From: an uncultured Chloroflexia bacterium
GTDB lineage: Bacteria > Chloroflexota > Limnocylindria > Limnocylindrales > CSP1-4
Reading direction: 5' to 3'
Assembly: GCA_963720495.1 (NCBI GenBank)
Contig: CAVRFU010000014.1
Span: forward strand, 14,844 to 78,843
DNA: 64,000 nt
Shown piece after piece: positions 54,188-64,000 of this stretch; positions within the stretch are counted from its first letter, which is position 1; every line of letters starts with the position of its first letter. Under the pieces are notes generated by a model that was not told where the DNA came from, searched no databases, and saw only the letters and a list, made by a program, of their open reading frames with translations. A program made the translations under genes and the position numbers.

Positions 54188-56525
54188 ATGTTCAGCCGCT
54201 GGGGAGCGTTCGTCTACCGCTTCCGTCGACCCGTCGCCCTCGTCGCCGTCATCATCGCGATCGCCAGCTCCGTGCTCGCGACGCAGACCTCATCGGCCCT
54301 GTCGGCAGGCGGCTGGCTCGATGCCGATTCCGAATCGGCGGCCGTCGCGGCCCGCCTGGACACCGAGTTCGGCGCCGGCAAGAGCTCGGTCATCGCGCTC
54401 TTCCGGTCAGAGACGCCCGGGGCCGACGCGAAGTCCGACGAGTTCCAGGGGGCGATCAAGACGGCGACCGCCGGGTTGTCGACCGTGCCCGAGGTCACCG
54501 GCATCATCGGCTACGCCGAGACCGGCGATCCGCGCTTCATCAGCACCGCCGGGGACGCCGCGTACATCGTCGTCGAGCTGAACGTCACCGACGAGCAGTC
54601 GGTCGAGGTCGTCGACCCGATCCGCGCGGCGATCGTCCCGCCGGCCGGCTACACGGTCGCGCTGACCGGCTACGGGCCGATCACGAAGGACTCTGCGGAG
54701 CAGTCCGAGAAGGACCTCCAGAAGGCGGAGATCGTCTCGCTGCCGGTCGTCGCGCTGGTGCTGATCCTCGTCTTCGCCTCGATCGTGGCCGCCGGGATGC
54801 CGCTGCTCGTCGCCGGCCTGGCGATCCCGAGCAGCCTGGCCCTCATCTACCTCGTCGCCCAGCAGGTCGAGATGAGCATCTTCGTCCTCAACATCGCGAC
54901 GATGCTCGGGCTGGCCCTTGCCATCGACTACTCGCTCTTCATCGTCAGCCGGTACCGCGAGGAATTGCGGCGCGGCCGGACCGTCGCCGAGGCCGTCGAA
55001 CGAGCGGTGTCCACCGCCGGCAAGGCCATCGCGTTCAGCGGGGTCGCCGTCGCGATCGGCCTGTCCGGCCTGCTGCTGTTCGAGGCACCCGCGATCCGGT
55101 CGATCGGCATCGCCGGCGCGATCGTCGTCCTGTGCTCGGTCGTCTTCGCCCTGACCTTCCTGCCGGCGATCCTCGGGATGCTCGGCCACCGCGTGAACGC
55201 GTTGTCGCTGAGCGGTCTCCGCCACCGATTCCGGCCGGTCGCCGACGGCGTCGAGCCGGCCCGCACCGCCCGCTGGGAGCGCGTCGCGCACGCCGTCATG
55301 CGCCGGCCCGATCGCGGTCCTCGTCCCGACACTGGCCTTCCTGCTCATCGTCGGCAGCCCGTTCCTCCGTCTGGAGCAGGGCGTGCCCGGCGCCGAGATC
55401 TACCCGCCCGGCGTGGAGAGCCGGGACGCATACGTCGCCCTCCAGACCGAGTTCGCTCCGGGCGAGACGACCCCGATCATCGTCCTCGCCGACGTCCAGG
55501 GCTCGCCCACCGACCTCGCCAACATCAAGGCCCTCGACGCCTACGCCGCACAGGTGGACGGGCTCGAGGGGATCGACCGGGTCGAGAGCCCGTTCACCAT
55601 CCACGACCCGACGACCGGCGCCGTGCTGACGCCCGAACAGGTCGCGGCGCTCTACGCCCAGCCCGTCGGCCAGCGCCCGGCCGGTCTCGAGGCCCTCCTC
55701 GCGCAGTACGTCCGCGGCAGCACGGTCCGGCTCGACGCGATCAGCCCGCTCCCGCCCTCGCGTCCGGAGGCGACCGACCTGATCCCGGTCATCCGCGCGA
55801 TCCCGGCCGGCGACGGGATCACGACCCAGGTCGGCGGCAGCGCCGCGACCGGCCACGATTTCCTCGTGTCGCAGGCGGAGCGCGCGCCGTACGCGGTCGG
55901 GCTGACCCTCCTGGCCAGCGGCTTCATCCTGTTCCTGCTGTTCGGGTCTCTCACCATCCCGTTCAAGGCCATCGTCATGACCCTGCTGTCGATCACCGCC
56001 AGCTTCGGCGCGTTGGTCTGGATCTTCCAGGAAGGCAACCTGTCGAACCTGCTCAACTTCGAGCCGCTCGGGTACACCATCGCGGGCAACCCGATCATCA
56101 TGTTCAGCGTGATCTTCGGGCTGTCCATGGACTACGAGGTCCTCCTGCTCTCGAGGATCCAGGAGGCCTACCGACGGACCGGCGACAACACGGCGTCGGT
56201 GGCCGAGGGACTGTCGAAGACCGCCGGGGTGATCACCGGCGCGGCCCTGATCATGGTCTCCGTCTTCGCGGCCTTCGCCCTGGCCGAGGTCATCACGATC
56301 AAGAGCATCGGCGTCGGCATGGCCATCGCCGTGGCGGTCGACGCCACGATCGTCCGGGTCCTGCTCGTGCCGGCCACCATGCGCCTCATGGGCAAGTGGA
56401 ACTGGTGGGCGCCCGGGATCCTCGGGCGGTTCGTCGATCGGCTCGGCTTCAGCCACGTCGAGGACGCCGAGGACGAGGCGAGCACGGGGACACCGGGGGC
56501 CTCACCGCGCCTCGCCGGCTCGTAG
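54188..56525 (+). CDS. MMPL-family transporter; frameshift near 55310
   Basis: GLALAIDYSLFIVSRYREE, FGLSMDYEVLLLSRI, ITGAALIM, DATIVR. Confidence 0.9.
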
Positions 56526-58165: not shown

Positions 58166-59528
58166 CTAGCCCGCGACGGCTTCGCCGGCCGGCGCCGGGG
58201 ACGCGGCCACGGCCTCGATCGTGTCGGCCAGCACGGCCGCGATCCGGTCCAGCTCCGCGTCGGTCACGATGAACGGCGGCCCGAGGAGGATCGTGTCGCC
58301 GTCGACGCCGTTGGCGTTGCCGGTCCCGGAGTAGAGCAGCACGCCCCGCTCACGGGCGCCCCGGACGACGGCCTCGGCGATCCGGTCGCCACGCGGGAAC
58401 GGCGCGCGGGTCTCGCGATCGGCCACCAGCTCGATGCCGACCAGCAGGCCGCGACCGCGGATCTCCCCGACGGCCGGGTGGCCCCCGATCGCCTCCTCCA
58501 GCAGGCCGAGCAATCGATGCACCCTTGGCGGCGCTCGCCGCGATGAGGTCCTCCGTCTCGAGGATGCGCAGCACCTCGCGGGCGACCGCTGCGCCGATCG
58601 GGGCATGCGAGTACGTGAAGCCGTGGACGAAACCGGCGCCGCCGCCCGTCACCGCCTCGTAGACCTCCTCCGAGGCCGCCACGAACCCGAACGGCCAGTA
58701 GCCCGACGACGCGCCCTTGGCCGCGACGAGGATGTCCGCGCGGACGCCGAAGTGGTCCAGCGCGAACCACCGGCCGGTCCGCCCGAACCCGGTCATGACC
58801 TCGTCGGCGATGAGCAGCACGCCGTGACGCCGGCAGACCTCCGCGATCGCCGGCCAGTAGCCCTCGGGCGGGACCGCGGCGGCCAGCGTGGCCCCGACGA
58901 TCGGTTCCGCCACGAACGCGGCGACCGTCCCGGGACCGGCGGCGGCGAACGCGCGATCGAGCTCGGCGGCCAGCTCATCGGCCGTGCCCAGGGCGTTCGC
59001 GCCGGGGAAGTCCGCCCGGTACGGATAGGCCGCCGACACGTGCCGGAAACGCCCGAGCCAGCCCTCGTACGGCCGGCGGAGCGGCTTGCGCCCGGACAGG
59101 TCGAGCGCGCCCAGCGTGTTGCCGTGGTAGCTCCCCCACCGGGCGAAGACGATCAGGCGATCCGCCTCCCCGCGCGCGAGGTGGTACGCCCGGGCGAGCT
59201 TGAGCGCGGTCTCGATCGCCTCCGAACCGCCGGACACCGGGTAGATCGCGGGACCGTCGACCGGCAGGTACCGGGCGACCTCCCGCGCATACGCCTCGAG
59301 CGGCTCGGTCGTGAAGGCGCTGCCGTGGGCGTAGGCCAGGCGACCGGCCTGGGCCGCCATCGCGGCGGCGATCTCGGGACGGCCGTGGCCCACGTTGACG
59401 ACGATGGCCCCGCCGGCCGCGTCGAGGTACTCCTTGCCTTCGGCGTCCCGGATCGTCGACCCGGAGGCCTCGACGGCGACGGGCGGTTCGGCGGCGCTCG
59501 AGCGGCGAAAGACGCGACCGGTGTTCAC
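58166..59528 (-). CDS. Class-III PLP aminotransferase; one frameshift
   Basis: YLDAAGG, SGGSEA, SYHG, AEPI, ADEVMTGFGRTG, AAKG, HGFTY, RGRGLL. Confidence 0.9.
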
Positions 59529-59580
59529 GGCCGCATCGTAGCCGACGCGACCGCCGAGCCGGCACGACGGGCCCCGGGAC

Positions 59581-60330
59581 TCAGATCGTCCGGTTGGCGA
59601 TCGCCAGCTCGCGTGCGGTCCAGGAACGGAGCGCGCCGAGCCGTCGGGCATCGAGCCGCTCGCACGCCCAATCCCAGTGGATCGCGATGTCGTCGCCCGG
59701 GATCGGCGCGTCGATGAAGCCGAGACCGTCGGACCAGCAGCGGATCGTCTCGACCCGCGCCGGACCCAGTCGCAGCTTGCCCCCGGCCCACTCGAGCGGC
59801 ACCGCATCGACCAGCAGGTCCGCCCCGATCCGGTCCCGGACGACCCCCCACCGGATCCGGCAGCGGTCGATGACACCGAGCACGTCGTCCGACGGACCGC
59901 CACGCAACAGACCGACCACCGGGAAGACGTCGAGGACGTGGAAGGCGTGGACCGGGTGAGCGCCGTCGGGGGCCTTGGTCGCGAGCCAGCGCCAGGCCGA
60001 CGCGCGGGCGCGCGGGCGGAAGCGCAGCTCGTTCGAGCGGGCGAAGGCGCCCGGCGGGACCGCCTCGAGCAGCTCGCTGCCGAGCCAGTACGCCTCCACG
60101 ACACGGTCGTCGAGCGGGTCGGCGATCCCGTTGGAGCGCGCGATCAGCTCGAGGTAGGGCCACGCTCCCTCGAAACCCTGGGCCAGCTCCCGGATCCGGC
60201 GCAGGTCGCCGCCGGCCGCGGCTTCGCCGAGCAGCTCGTCGGCGGCATCGGGACCGCAGTAGCCGAGCCGGTTCGGACCGTACGCGTAGCGGGCGAAGCG
60301 GATCGGGCCGGGGACGTCGGTCGCGATCAT
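59581..60330 (-). CDS. DUF6390-like protein
   Basis: FARYAYGPNRLGYCGP, FEGAWPYLELIA, VVEAYWLG, HAFHV, CRIRWG, IHWDWAC. Confidence 0.8.
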   Translation of the reverse strand: MIATDVPGPIRFARYAYGPNRLGYCGPDAADELLGEAAAGGDLRRIRELAQGFEGAWPYLELIARSNGIADPLDDRVVEAYWLGSELLEAVPPGAFARSNELRFRPRARASAWRWLATKAPDGAHPVHAFHVLDVFPVVGLLRGGPSDDVLGVIDRCRIRWGVVRDRIGADLLVDAVPLEWAGGKLRLGPARVETIRCWSDGLGFIDAPIPGDDIAIHWDWACERLDARRLGALRSWTARELAIANRTI

Positions 60331-61287
60331 CGGATCACGCGGCGACGACCCGCATCGCGCCGCGACCGCATCGCGACGATAACGACGATGACGACGGCGA
60401 CGGCCATGATGCGCCTGCCCCAGCACCACGCTCGGTGCCGGCAGCGTGCCGTTGACGGCGGCGGCCAGCGCGGCCGTGATCGGGGCGCCGATGACGAGGA
60501 CGCTCGCAACGATCGAGGCGTCTGCCCGGCGCAGGGCGGCCAGCCAGGTCCCCGTGTAGACGGCGAGCAGTGCGCCCGTCCCCAGGCCCCATGCCCATTG
60601 CGTCGCGGTCAACCCGACCAGGGTCGGCAGGCGGCCGCTGACCGCGAGGTAGCCGACGAGGACGACCAGACCGATCCCGAGCCGGGCCGCGCCAACGACC
60701 GGCGAAGGCACATCCGCGACGAGCAGTCGCCGGGCGAGGATCACCTCGACGGCCCACAGCAGCGTCGCGGCCAGGATCATCGTCTCGCCGGTCCCCCAGA
60801 CGACGCCGGTCGGCGGCGCCGCCAGGACCTGGCCGGCCAGCAGGATGCCGAGGGCGGCGATCGGGAACCAGCCCAGTCGCTCGCCGAGGAACGGCACGGC
60901 CAGGACGGCCACCCACACGAAGAGCGTCTTGTGGATGAACGCCGCGGTCGGCGCGCTCGCGATGGCCAGGCCGCTGAAGAACAGGATGAAGGGGACGCTG
61001 CCGCCGATGACCCCGATGGCCGTCATCCCGGCCCACGCCCGACGATCGAGAGCGCGGATCTCGGACCGCCGGACGACGAGGAGCGCGGCACCGATGAGCA
61101 GGATGGCGGCGACACCGTTCTTGAGCGTCGTGTACACCGCGGCGTCGGGCACCTGCTTGACGGCATACCCGTTGACGAAGACGGAGATCCCGCTGACGAG
61201 CGCCACGCCGAACGCCAGGGCGATGCCCCAGCCGGTCGTGACGGGGATGCGCGGCCGGACGGTCGCGGGCTCACGCTCGATGGTCAT
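60327..61287 (-). CDS. EamA/DMT-family transporter; indel near 60415
   Basis: 10-TM two-repeat pattern; AGGAGG RBS; restored frame ends with an ATGA overlap into the next gene. Confidence 0.82.
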
Positions 61288-61507
61288 CGGGGTCCTCCTG
61301 GCGCGCGGCATCGATGGCGGTGCGGATGGCGGCCGCCTCGTCCGCGGCGACGCGGTCGATGACGGTCCCGGCGGAGACGTACACCCACTCCCCGACCGCG
61401 AGGTCGGGGAGCAGCAGCGTGTTCGCGCGCCGGCGACGCCCGTCGGACTCGACGGTGGCGCCGTCCGGGTCGATCGCGACGACGAGGCCCGGGGCACCGA
61501 GGCACAT
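61271..61507 (-). CDS. hypC: HypC/HybG/HupF-family chaperone with the conserved His missing
   Basis: MCLGAPGLVV N-terminus; VGEWVYVSAG; DEAAA helix. Confidence 0.8.
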   Translation of the reverse strand: MCLGAPGLVVAIDPDGATVESDGRRRRANTLLLPDLAVGEWVYVSAGTVIDRVAADEAAAIRTAIDAARQEDPDDHRA

Positions 61508-61510
61508 GGC

Positions 61511-63187
61511 TCAGGCACCCACCGCCACGCCGGCGAGCTCCTGGAGGGTCCGCCAGCCGGCCAGCCGATCGGCGGCGGTGGCGACGATCTCGTCGGTCGG
61601 TGTCCCGTCGGGACCGAAGTGCGGGGCGAACCGTCCCTCGGTACGCGCGAATGTCAGGAAGTCGACCGGGCTGCCGTCCGGGGCCGTCGCCCAGTCGCCC
61701 TTGAGCGCCGGGTTGCCCTGGAGGGACAGGCGCTCGGCGATGGTCGCACCACGTCGTGGGTCGTAGGTGAAGAGCGGGAAGGCGCGGGACTCGACCGCGA
61801 GCCTGGACTGCCGCGCTGAGGCGTCGTCGGCGATGCCGTGCTCCGGCTGGCATGGGGTATAGGCGATGACCACGGCGGGGCCGGGGTAGGCGTTCGCCTC
61901 CATGATCGTCCGCAGGAAATGGTTGATGTGCGCCGGCGTGGTCTGCGCGACGTACGCCTCGCCGTGGGCGATAAGGATCCGGCCGAGCTCCTTGCGGGGC
62001 TCGTTCCGACCGTGGATCGCCTTCCCGAACGCGGACAGCTTCGTCACCTGGCCGCCGAATGACGCCGTCGAGGCCTGGCCGCCGGTGTTCGAGTAGACCT
62101 GCGTGTCGAGGACGAGCACCTTGATGTCGGCGCCGGAGGCGACCATCCGCGACAGCGCGCCGAACCCGATGTCGAACATCGCCCCGTCGCCGCCGATCAC
62201 CCACAGGCGTCGCTCCGGATGGCCCGCCTGGTCCCAGCGGGCGCGGATGCCCATCGCGACCGTCGGCGCATTCTCGAACAGCGAGTTCGTCCACGGAACG
62301 AGGTACGGGTTGAACGGATAGGTGCTGCCGTAGACCGTGTTGCAGCCGGTGGCCGCGACGATCCCCATGGACTCCGGGCCGTGCACCTGGCGGGTGGCCG
62401 CGACCATCTGGCGGATCGCGGTCGCCTCGCCGCAGCCGGCGCACGAGCCGGCCCCGCCGACGTATCCGATCGCGTTCTCGCCGAGAAGGAGATCGGCCAG
62501 AGCCTTCTCGTTGCGGTAGACGTCGGGGGTCGGCGGCAGCGAGCGGAAGAACCGCATGTCGCGTGCGTAGCGCTCGACGGTCCCCTCTCCGCTCGGCTCC
62601 TCGGCGACCTTGTCGATCATCACCAGGGCGTCATGACCCAGCGCCGCGCAGACCTCGACGCACTCGGCGCAGCCCTTGCAGTGGACCGGGTCCACGAAGA
62701 TCCCGAACGAGCCGCGTTCGTGGCCCTTGCGCGCCGGCACGTCGCCGTACTTGGTCGTCGGGGCGAAGTGCGTCTGTCCCGTCGCCGTCGCGACGGCTGG
62801 GTCCGGCTGTCCGGCGGCGAACGTGGCGAGCAGCGGACGAACCTCCGTTTCCGGCACGACCCGGGCGAGGATGGCCGTGTCGGGGCAGGCCGCGACGCAG
62901 GCCATGCAGCCGACGCACTTGTCGAGCAGGAACTCGGGGATGCGCGGCGCGAGCCGGCTGAAATCGCGTGTCGCGGCGGTCCCGGGCGGGATGATCGAGC
63001 GGGCCAGACCGGCATCGGCCGGGAGCTCCATGTCGGCCACGCCACGCCGATAGGCGGGCACGACGGACCGACCGAAGTCCTCGACGTAGGCGTGCATGTC
63101 GAGGACCGGCAGGGCGGCCCCCAGGCGGGTCTCGTGCAGCTCCTTCGGCTCGCCGGCGACCTTGAGGAGCGGTTCGCTATCGGACAT
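61511..63187 (-). CDS. Pyruvate:ferredoxin oxidoreductase C-terminal subunit (2x[4Fe-4S] + TPP domain)
   Basis: CVGCMACVAACP, CKGCAECVEVC, SCAGCGE, ATGC, GGDG...YSNTGGQAS, YTPC. Confidence 0.9.
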   Translation of the reverse strand: MSDSEPLLKVAGEPKELHETRLGAALPVLDMHAYVEDFGRSVVPAYRRGVADMELPADAGLARSIIPPGTAATRDFSRLAPRIPEFLLDKCVGCMACVAACPDTAILARVVPETEVRPLLATFAAGQPDPAVATATGQTHFAPTTKYGDVPARKGHERGSFGIFVDPVHCKGCAECVEVCAALGHDALVMIDKVAEEPSGEGTVERYARDMRFFRSLPPTPDVYRNEKALADLLLGENAIGYVGGAGSCAGCGEATAIRQMVAATRQVHGPESMGIVAATGCNTVYGSTYPFNPYLVPWTNSLFENAPTVAMGIRARWDQAGHPERRLWVIGGDGAMFDIGFGALSRMVASGADIKVLVLDTQVYSNTGGQASTASFGGQVTKLSAFGKAIHGRNEPRKELGRILIAHGEAYVAQTTPAHINHFLRTIMEANAYPGPAVVIAYTPCQPEHGIADDASARQSRLAVESRAFPLFTYDPRRGATIAERLSLQGNPALKGDWATAPDGSPVDFLTFARTEGRFAPHFGPDGTPTDEIVATAADRLAGWRTLQELAGVAVGA

Positions 63188-63626
63188 GGTCGTCTCCCTG
63201 GCGCGCGTCGCGCGCGAGGCGGGCCATGTCGTGCACGAGGTCGGTCGTCGACAGGATCCCGATCGGGATCGTCTCGTCATCGTCGGCGACGACGACCAGG
63301 CGGTGGATGTGATCGCGCTCCATCCTCGCGGCCGCGACCGACAGGGGCGTCGAGCGCGTGACCGTGATCGGCGGGGCGGTCATCAGGTGTCGGACCGCGA
63401 GGCCGGGCCAGTTGACCCAGAGGTACTCGGTCGACCGCGCCCGGACGAGGTCGGTCTGGCTGACGACGCCGACGAGCGTGCCGGCGGAGTCGACGACGGG
63501 CAGGCCGCTGACGCGGTGGTGGTCCATGAGCTCGGCCGCCTGCTCCAGCGGCGCATCGGCACGCACGACGATGAGGTCGAGCGCCATGACATCGGCGACG
63601 GTCGTCGCCCGGGCGGCGGTGGTCAT
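63177..63626 (-). CDS. Stand-alone CBS-pair protein
   Basis: VSGLPVVD...GVVSQTD and IHRLVV...GILSTTD; overlaps both neighbours. Confidence 0.88.
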   Translation of the reverse strand: MTTAARATTVADVMALDLIVVRADAPLEQAAELMDHHRVSGLPVVDSAGTLVGVVSQTDLVRARSTEYLWVNWPGLAVRHLMTAPPITVTRSTPLSVAAARMERDHIHRLVVVADDDETIPIGILSTTDLVHDMARLARDARQGDDHVR

Positions 63627-64000
63627 CGAACGGCTCCTTCCGGTTCACGGGCTTCGGGAGCGGACACCGGATCGACGCCGGTCGGCAGGTCGAGTGCCGC
63701 GGAGACATCGACCAGGCCGTCATAGGCGGCTTCGATGACCGCGAGGTTGGCCTCCACGACCGCCCCGCCACGCTTGCCGAAGAAGCGCCCCAGGCGATCC
63801 CGGACGGCATGCATGAGGGCGTCGCGATCCATGCCCGCCCGCGCCGCGAACGGCGAGACCTTCAGGAAGACCCCGACCAGGGCCACGCCCTGCATCCGGA
63901 TCAGGAGGTCGGGGGTGGGCGCGTAGGCGGCCGCGAGGCTGACCGTGTCGAGTGCGGTCACCCGGATGCGGCGGGCGACGAGCTCCGCCCGGACGGGCGC
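63623..64000 (-). CDS. 3' end of the PFOR alpha/gamma subunit; runs off the window
   Basis: RMQGVALVGVF...FFGKRG...VVEANL, typical of POR gamma-domain ends; adjacent to the beta subunit. Confidence 0.72.
   Translation of the reverse strand, partial: APVRAELVARRIRVTALDTVSLAAAYAPTPDLLIRMQGVALVGVFLKVSPFAARAGMDRDALMHAVRDRLGRFFGKRGGAVVEANLAVIEAAYDGLVDVSAALDLPTGVDPVSAPEAREPEGAVR

Follow-up and report, generated by a model that had tools for sequence, protein, structure and literature searches.

This study concerns a stretch of 64,000 nucleotides (the window), which comprises positions 14844-78843 of contig C14 in the genome G000 of an uncultured Chloroflexia bacterium, and in particular three genes on its minus strand that code for a HypC-family chaperone, an EamA-type permease and a protein of the Pfam family DUF6390. 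We found that hypC-eamA-DUF6390 is a set of accessory genes that is conserved in operons for [NiFe]-hydrogenases and here forms the tail of such an operon, and that DUF6390 is itself a HypC derivative in which a helical domain without a detectable known fold is joined to a true HypC homologue. We are fairly confident that the set serves the hydrogenase, and DUF6390 is most likely a metal-handling maturation factor derived from HypC.

When one genome per species was scanned, 578 loci encoding a relative of DUF6390 were found, and the best 80 of these were kept and searched by tblastn with the proteins of the operon. Judged by the titles of their records, these loci represent Limnocylindria and further Chloroflexota, Actinomycetota (Pedococcus, Fodinibacter, Nocardioides, Acidimicrobiia) and Dormibacterota. 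In 53 of the 80 loci a [NiFe]-hydrogenase large subunit is encoded upstream, on the same strand; among the loci without one, 11 offer under 7 kb of sequence in that direction. EamA was encoded directly upstream of DUF6390 in 69 loci, which supports the module proposed in a preliminary description of this DNA and shows it to be conserved. HypC was detected upstream of DUF6390 in 43 loci, a number that is an undercount for some loci because of the E-value limit, and actinobacterial loci inspected by eye do show the protease and HypC. A close homologue of the alpha/gamma subunit of pyruvate:ferredoxin oxidoreductase (PFOR), the genes of which precede hypC in the window, was present anywhere in the locus (within 10 kb) in only 7 of the 80 loci, and it was located between the protease and hypC in only 4. 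Because PFOR is this rare whereas the large subunit is upstream in 53 loci, the triad belongs to the hydrogenase and not to PFOR, and the coupling of the module to PFOR that had been proposed earlier is not upheld. PFOR is a lineage-specific insertion in the hydrogenase operon, where it is plausibly useful by feeding pyruvate-derived electrons into fermentative H2 metabolism.

The preliminary description had also noted that there is no hydrogenase gene in the window. This is literally correct but misleading, because a complete group-3b-type [NiFe]-hydrogenase operon (G000:C14:80546-85769, window-equivalent 65703-70926; locus L004) begins on the same strand 1.7 kb past the window end at C14:78843. 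The order of the genes is that for a cyclic-nucleotide (cNMP)-binding protein, a HydB/HydG fusion, the small subunit, the large subunit, the endopeptidase, PFOR with a CBS-pair protein, and hypC-eamA-DUF6390. The large subunit (G000:C14:81055-82311, minus strand, 418 aa) has its best matches to the models ShyA (240 bits) and HydA (216 bits), and both CxxC motifs are present in it, the first as RICGICP near the N-terminus and the second as DPCISCATH followed by a ten-residue C-terminal extension. The maturation endopeptidase (G000:C14:80546-81100, minus strand) scores 54.6 bits with TIGR00072, for which the cut-off is 47.45. The other three genes are upstream of PFOR on the same strand and code for a 689-aa HydB/HydG-like fusion with 4Fe-4S dicluster, NAD-binding and DHODB Fe-S domains, a HydD/ShyD-like small subunit and the cNMP-binding protein. 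Judged by its best NCBIfam matches, all of which are under the equivalog cut-offs, the enzyme appears to be a distant, cytosolic member of the group 3b type. It resembles the group 3b enzymes, such as the Pyrococcus sulfhydrogenases and that of Frankia synton-4, in that its four subunit types best match ShyA/HydA, ShyD/HydD, HydB and HydG and in that it would be cytosolic with an NAD(P)-binding module, but it differs from them in the fusion of the beta and gamma subunits and in those low scores.

DUF6390 is not confined to operons of the 3b type. In HypD-less Chloroflexota it was found 2-4 kb from full-length large subunits of group-1 type, and the group-1-type operons with DUF6390 carry a gene for cytochrome b, or genes for Rieske, DUF6084 and DUF5947 proteins. 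At one locus (L109, G270:C27:1-20000) a single contig encodes two [NiFe] large subunits along with two copies of DUF6390, and one of these copies is accompanied by genes for Rieske, DUF5947 and DUF6084 proteins and for a protein of 420-478 aa without a Pfam family.

DUF6390 and its relation to HypC

The DUF6390 protein of the window (59581..60330, minus strand, 249 aa) matches PF19927 with 273 bits, compared to a gathering cut-off of 25, over model positions 3-240 of 244. It is composed of a helical N-domain (residues 1-157, with Cys25, His128 and His131) and a HypC-like oligonucleotide/oligosaccharide-binding (OB) domain (residues 160-245; Cys157, His218 and Cys223). A family search limited to proteins of 136-436 aa gave at least 1202 cluster representatives, and the approximately 150 that were listed are mostly about 250 aa long. 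In an alignment of the window protein with 71 full-length sequences chosen among these 150, nine residues were invariant (Pro19, Cys25, Gly26, Phe53, His128, Val132, Cys157, Gly212 and His218) and the nearly invariant residues included His131, Arg158, Trp219 and Cys223. A search of a literature library found no paper on DUF6390.

Structure and sequence comparisons both lead to HypC. The AlphaFold model of DUF6390, with a predicted local distance difference test score (pLDDT) of 95.5 and a predicted template modelling score (pTM) of 0.93, has helices at residues 8-157, a small beta barrel at 160-226 and a C-terminal helix. When this model was compared to the PDB by Foldseek, HypC of T. kodakarensis took ranks 1-5 (E 0.02-0.04, target TM score 0.60-0.81, 21-25% identity), and with the VIA structural aligner HypC was again first (2z1c_A, Z 5.5, root mean square deviation 2.0 A, 71 of 71 residues, model residues 155-245) and E. 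coli HypC was second (Z 4.4). A profile search of the PDB sequences gave four weak matches, of which the best three were HypC (E 0.06-0.2) and the fourth was a ribosomal protein (E 0.99), and its alignment places Cys157 on Cys2 of HypC and His218 on the HypC His. When the C-domain was aligned by hhalign with 43 HypC sequences from the loci, the probability was 95.7% with an E-value of 9.4e-9 over 62 columns, whereas the N-domain, used as a control, gave 0.1% with HypC. The Pfam HypC model PF01455 was not reported for DUF6390 at E<=0.01. The HypC-like character of the C-terminus, which the preliminary description had read from the motif GDDIAIHWDWAC, is thereby substantiated; that motif and YCGP, HAFH and CRI are all present in DUF6390, as are MCLGAP and VGEWVYVSAG in the window HypC. 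The OB domain of DUF6390 retains the equivalents of HypC Cys2 and His51, namely Cys157 and His218. Compared to HypC, HybG and HupF (PF01455, TIGR00074; PDB 2z1c, 3vyr and 2ot2), the C-domain has the same OB fold and C-terminal helix but its Cys stands behind a helical domain of 156 residues and its OB domain has an insertion of about 20 residues.

The N-domain could not be assigned to a known fold. When it was folded alone (pLDDT 85.8), the best Foldseek match had an E-value of 4.4 and nothing could be named; an acyl-carrier-like helical bundle was considered and dropped as its best VIA Z of 3.9 is within noise, and a search of the ESM Atlas with residues 1-156, excluding PF19927, gave no usable match. 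In a prediction of the complex of DUF6390 with HypC the score was 0.58 compared to 0.03 for the best of three controls, the agreement between runs covered 80% or more of the contacts and the partner had a pLDDT of 79 or higher. Of 80 solved complexes 58 attained the mark that this score passes, as did 2 of 110 mismatched pairs; among those that attained it, scores of 0.60 or under belong to only 7 of the 80 and to both mismatches. The predicted complex is weak support and counts as a minor plus.

The HypC of the window (61271..61507, minus strand, 78 aa) is the only HypC in its genome and scores 62.9 bits with PF01455 (cut-off 28.5) and 55.4 bits with TIGR00074 (cut-off 48). It has the N-terminal Met-Cys, in the sequence MCLGAPG, and Cys2 is invariant in 46 aligned sequences, but the conserved His (H51 of E. 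coli, in the motif G-D-W-V-L-V-H) is replaced by Ser. Among 43 HypC proteins adjoining DUF6390, 21 have this His and 22 do not (Ala in 14, Ser in 4, Gly in 2, Glu in 1 and Gln in 1), and all the 22 His-less proteins are from Chloroflexota loci, most of them from 3b operons related to that of the window. The replacement, already noticed in the preliminary description, is therefore not a sequencing error, because it is conserved in the clade. The further proposal made there, that Cys and His are split over HypC and DUF6390, does not hold in general: DUF6390 carries both, which makes such a split unneeded, and the HypC of HypD-less Actinomycetota retains the His, for example as GDWLLCHSG in Pedococcus cremeus. 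The His of E. coli HypC is described as lying at the HypC-HypD interface, where the H51A exchange weakens the interaction with HypD (PMC9002611). The simplest explanation for its loss is relaxed selection after the loss of HypD, and a His-less HypC fits the loss of the contact with HypD.

HypD, HypE and HypF in genomes with DUF6390

In the window genome, which is 76% complete, HypD and HypA gave no match and HypE, HypF and HypB gave only sub-threshold matches to paralogous domains. When the same genome was searched by tblastn with actinobacterial HypD, HypE and HypF, nothing was found at E<=0.01. The sequence beyond position 64000, where a canonical hyp set just upstream could have explained the finding, holds the hydrogenase operon, and HypD, HypE and HypF were not found in the genome. 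The search was extended to 41 genomes, which are the window genome, 24 others of the genus and 16 of the order, and HypD, HypE and HypF were over cut-off in none of them. DUF6390, HypC and a large subunit over the cut-off were present in exactly the same 14 of these 41 genomes, five of which are 91-95% complete. Canonical HypD, HypE and HypF were thus found neither in the window genome nor in its genus.

The genomes of 48 of the 80 loci, picked for long contigs or named isolates, were also searched, and HypD was absent from 47 of them and HypF from 47. Among the 47 genomes with neither protein are those of Pedococcus cremeus, P. bigeumensis, Fodinibacter luteus, Nocardioides aquiterrae and a closed chromosome of 3.1 Mb (OY970185.1). 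HypE was over cut-off in none of five genomes examined for it, the closed chromosome, three isolates and a 97%-complete metagenome-assembled genome (MAG), and in each of these five no large subunit other than that of the 3b type is present. In Frankia a group-3b gene set without hyp genes of its own is described as never being the only hydrogenase, and borrowing of Hyp proteins is assumed there (PMC11879354). Such borrowing is closed to the genomes studied here, because their 3b enzyme is the sole hydrogenase and HypD, HypE and HypF were not found in them. The library search also gave no paper that describes hydrogenases matured without HypD.

When a sample of 301 Chloroflexota genomes, evenly drawn and at least 85% complete apart from G000, was examined, HypD was matched in 138 at E-values of about 1e-150. 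Among the 174 genomes with a large subunit, 135 had HypD only, 32 had DUF6390 only, none had both and 7 had neither; without three unpublished HypD-positive genomes (G343, G249 and G126) the numbers are 132, 32, 0 and 7 of 171. The seven genomes with a large-subunit match and neither HypD nor DUF6390 are G102, G158, G194, G218, G274, G308 and G324. A tree of DUF6390 was made with 77 sequences of known HypD status, out of 109 extracted, and in this tree a Chloroflexota clade of 39 rows (support 99) is uniformly HypD-negative.

Genes of the window and the eamA-DUF6390 junction

The six genes at the end of the window are all on the minus strand and form the 3' end of one long operon. The first of them, for PFOR alpha/gamma, is in the window with its 3' part only (63623..64000) and continues to window-equivalent 65599 (G000:C14:78466-80442; 658 aa in the contig); it has the domains POR_N (206.6 bits), PFOR_II (65.7 bits) and POR (86.5 bits) and scores 366 bits with TIGR02176, which is under the equivalog cut-off. 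The PFOR delta/beta fusion (61511..63190, 559 aa) has two 4Fe-4S motifs and a thiamine pyrophosphate (TPP)-binding domain, with 53.6 bits for TPP_enzyme_C, matches to several Fer4 models and 153.7 bits for PorB, again under cut-off. The alpha, gamma, delta and beta domains and the TPP site of an oxidoreductase for pyruvate or another 2-oxoacid are thus all present. Between the two PFOR genes is a gene for a CBS-pair protein (63177..63626, 149 aa; PF00571 104.3 bits, two stretches), which may be a nucleotide-sensing regulator of PFOR. The CBS-pair protein was found by tblastn between the PFOR genes in loci L023-L025 too, and it was also matched in locus L022, which is without PFOR. The coordinates confirm the tight coupling of the genes that had been described: there is an overlap of 4 nt between the genes for PFOR alpha/gamma and CBS and of 14 nt between those for CBS and PFOR delta/beta, a gap of 3 nt separates PFOR delta/beta from hypC, and eamA starts (61287) 17 nt inside hypC.

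The preliminary description had counted six separate genes, and their family assignments are correct, but EamA and DUF6390 are not separate open reading frames (ORFs) in the window, where a single ORF (59581-61518) runs through both and no stop codon separates eamA from DUF6390. The permease, of the drug/metabolite transporter (DMT) type (60327..61287, minus strand; PF00892 72.7 bits, two EamA repeats), is out of frame in its last 90 nt or so. At the 3' end of eamA the second frame encodes a typical last membrane helix and the third frame encodes the end ...RVVAA*, and in an alignment the last approximately 90 nt of the window eamA are out of register compared to five close relatives (L022-L026). 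Two bases of the window are missing from public contigs that align to it at 90% likeness and stem from three DNA runs, each of a different study (X1-X3); one of the two is missing from contigs of an RNA-library run (X15) as well. The base at 60412/60413 is missing in the contigs at depths of 3.56/3.56 in X1, 3.1/3.1 in X2 and 4.97/9.28 in X3, and the base at 60353/60354 is missing at 3.56/8.68 in X1, 3.1 plus 3.3 of 6.4 in X2, 4.97/4.97 in X3 and 3.53/6.23 in X15. The contigs of X15 cover 22 of 30 bins of the stretch and, being contigs, are no proof of transcription. Two other genes of the window are split as well. A class-III aminotransferase gene (58166-59564, minus strand) is split over two frames, which correspond to Pfam positions 12-294 and 326-402, with an apparent frameshift near 58600, and a gene for an MMPL-family transporter (54188-56525, plus strand) is split near 55350 into 54188-55350 and 55383-56525; the split MMPL gene suggests that the assembly is prone to indels. 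Because of the register of the relatives, the public contigs and these split genes, the apparent eamA-DUF6390 fusion is read as the result of assembly indels, probably two 1-nt insertions that are assembly errors. The natural EamA most likely ends in ...RVVAA*, 4 nt ahead of the start codon of DUF6390.

The neighbours of DUF6390 were further examined in a sample of 108 loci that leans towards relatives of the window protein. EamA was encoded within 2 kb of DUF6390 in 76 of them and an ATP-binding cassette (ABC) importer of the NikA type, with SBP_bac_5, within 3 kb in 7, so that one or the other is beside DUF6390 in 83 of the 108. In the Chloroflexota loci L117, L118, L119, L120, L107 and L116 a NikA-like SBP_bac_5 transporter directly flanks DUF6390 instead of EamA. 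Ten longer members of the DUF6390 family were scanned for additional domains; one, P0202, is a genuine EamA-DUF6390 fusion, five carry a DNA-binding domain, namely PadR (two), GntR, XRE-type helix-turn-helix (HTH) and MarR (P0148, P0236, P0128, P0241 and P0158), and four have no extra domain. These transporter neighbours and fusions suggest that the domain has a metal or a small molecule as its ligand, and a role in nickel handling stays in play. To our knowledge no member of the EamA/DMT permeases (PF00892) has been linked to hydrogenase maturation, a statement for which no specific search was made.

Role of the DUF6390 module

In canonical maturation the HypC-HypD complex assembles Fe(CN)2CO, HypE and HypF feed cyanide to HypCD, and a Cys of HypD pairs with Cys2 of HypC. 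DUF6390 follows hypC, which is the usual position of hypD, and by analogy with the scaffold of E. coli and T. kodakarensis a Cys of its other domain could pair with its own HypC-type Cys. The explanation that we favour is that DUF6390 holds a metal centre between its two domains, most likely iron destined for the active site, and that this site would correspond, within a single molecule, to the pair of HypC and HypD. DUF6390 and the free HypC would then load the large subunit before its cleavage by the endopeptidase, in HypD-less lineages this loading would proceed without the HypCD scaffold, and the EamA permease would supply or remove the metal or small molecule involved. The His of HypC would have been lost here because it mainly serves the contact with HypD, and PFOR would give low-potential electrons derived from pyruvate to the same fermentative H2 metabolism. 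We regard this explanation, taken as a whole, as standing at an even balance. That DUF6390 handles a metal is rather more probable than that, and that it takes the place of the HypCD scaffold is a tentative proposal that we think will more probably prove wrong; nevertheless, for the scaffold that is missing in the window lineage, where HypD, HypE and HypF were not detected, we infer DUF6390 to be the foremost candidate.

Several observations weigh against this explanation. The window genome is only 76% complete, and one of the 48 genomes searched, G087, has both HypD and HypF, side by side. The related genomes are not independent. In the Chloroflexota sample DUF6390 is spread over 23 genera and HypD over 82. 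Of 351 evenly sampled Actinomycetota genomes 17 had DUF6390; G067 (HypD-negative) and the unpublished G530 were left out, and of the other 15 genomes 9 also encode HypD, which directly adjoins DUF6390 in G559 and a fragment of DUF6390 in G615. The HypD-positive rows (n=9) are scattered on the DUF6390 tree, with 7 changes compared to a shuffled mean of 8.7, and a division of DUF6390 into HypD-linked and HypD-less subfamilies was unsupported by the tree outside the Chloroflexota clade. The HypC-like Cys of DUF6390 is internal, at position 157, and not N-terminal as in HypC. The N-domain is unlike HypD in sequence, and there is no 4Fe-4S motif; with three HypD sequences hhalign gave a probability of 0.1% for the N-domain and 0.0% for full-length DUF6390. 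HypA is encoded in 20 of the 108 DUF6390 loci, and the HTH fusions, of four kinds, together with the adjacency of transporters fit nickel handling or sensing equally well. Finally, DUF6390 alone cannot explain how CN and CO would be provided, and HypE and HypF were not found here either. DUF6390 is thus not a strict replacement of HypD, as some of the bacteria that have it possess the canonical machinery too and others do not. The term HypD-independent, used in the preliminary description, is apt for the window lineage but not for the family, and the profile of DUF6390 against the absence of hypD, which was suggested there as a check, is exclusive in the 174 hydrogenase-bearing Chloroflexota but not in Actinomycetota. 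The scaffold reading is weakened because HypD co-occurs in Actinomycetota and because it does not account for CN and CO.

Part of the same evidence could be explained by nickel instead of iron. EamA, or the NikA-type importer, would bring in nickel or a nickel chelate, and DUF6390 would be the cytoplasmic acceptor that passes it to the large subunit, thereby replacing or assisting HypA and HypB and not HypD. The transporter beside DUF6390 in 83 of 108 loci, the fusion P0202, the three Cys and three His of DUF6390 that are invariant or nearly so, and the window genome itself, where HypA was not found and HypB was only under cut-off, would all agree with this, and a soluble Cys/His-rich protein beside an importer in a hydrogenase operon does resemble nickel delivery by HypA, HypB and SlyD with NikABCDE. 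However, DUF6390 has no homology to those systems, the loci with HypA show that it is no simple replacement, we know of no nickel transporter of the EamA family, and the domain descends from the iron chaperone HypC, of which it retains the iron-linked Cys and His. Moreover, the missing HypD, HypE and HypF would be left unexplained. We consider this nickel route as a whole to be unlikely. Less likely still is that DUF6390 is not a maturation factor but senses a ligand or metal and regulates the expression of the hydrogenase or the activity of the transporter. For effector-binding domains it is typical that the same domain is found fused to HTH domains of various families, and 5 of the 10 longer family members do carry a DNA-binding domain, but in the search of 136-436 aa the window protein and most of its relatives are without one, each hydrogenase operon can have its own copy of DUF6390, as is the case for HypC, and the DUF6390 gene stands in a group of maturation genes, following those for HypC and the protease.

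The two remaining alternatives are both very improbable. That the set makes a metallocofactor for or with PFOR, independently of a hydrogenase and in such a way that HypC would give the Cys and DUF6390 the His, was suggested by the triad directly following PFOR, in the window and in L023-L025, and by the His-less HypC of the window, but it is contradicted by the gene-order data given above, by the co-occurrence of the module with a large subunit in 14 of 14 genomes of the genus set, and by the presence of both Cys and His in DUF6390 and of the His in the HypC of Actinomycetota. Hardly more probable is that there is nothing unusual, with canonical HypD, HypE and HypF missed through incompleteness or divergence and DUF6390 being a minor accessory. 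The incomplete window genome, the many relatives that are MAGs and the Frankia set that is thought to borrow its Hyp proteins would allow for this. Nevertheless, none of the 41 genus and order genomes had these proteins over cut-off, although five of those with the module are at least 91% complete; they are absent from the closed 3.1-Mb chromosome and from three isolates in which this is the sole large subunit; the tblastn search with the actinobacterial proteins was empty in the window genome; and the same search that failed here detects HypD at about 1e-150 in 138 of 301 Chloroflexota.

The six Hyp proteins, A to F, are described as synthesizing the cofactor of all [NiFe]-hydrogenases (PMC12130793). 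The hydrogenase described here has intact metal ligands and a protease of its own. It is conserved across many genomes in which the searches for HypD, HypE and HypF were negative, and there it is always accompanied by the HypC-derived DUF6390. If these enzymes are active, then the source of their CN and CO ligands and their iron scaffold must differ from the canonical ones. It is possible, but in our estimate doubtful, that a sizeable set of soil bacteria, which includes Limnocylindria, other Chloroflexota and several Actinomycetota with the cultured Pedococcus, Fodinibacter and Nocardioides, assembles active group 3b and group 1 [NiFe]-hydrogenases without HypD, HypE and HypF, and that DUF6390, being a HypC joined to a new Cys/His domain, would be the iron scaffold of this other pathway, in which free HypC and a dedicated permease also take part. 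The long-standing assumption that all six Hyp proteins are required becomes testable, three of the organisms are in culture collections, and a Pfam family of at least 1202 cluster representatives gains a lead to its function.

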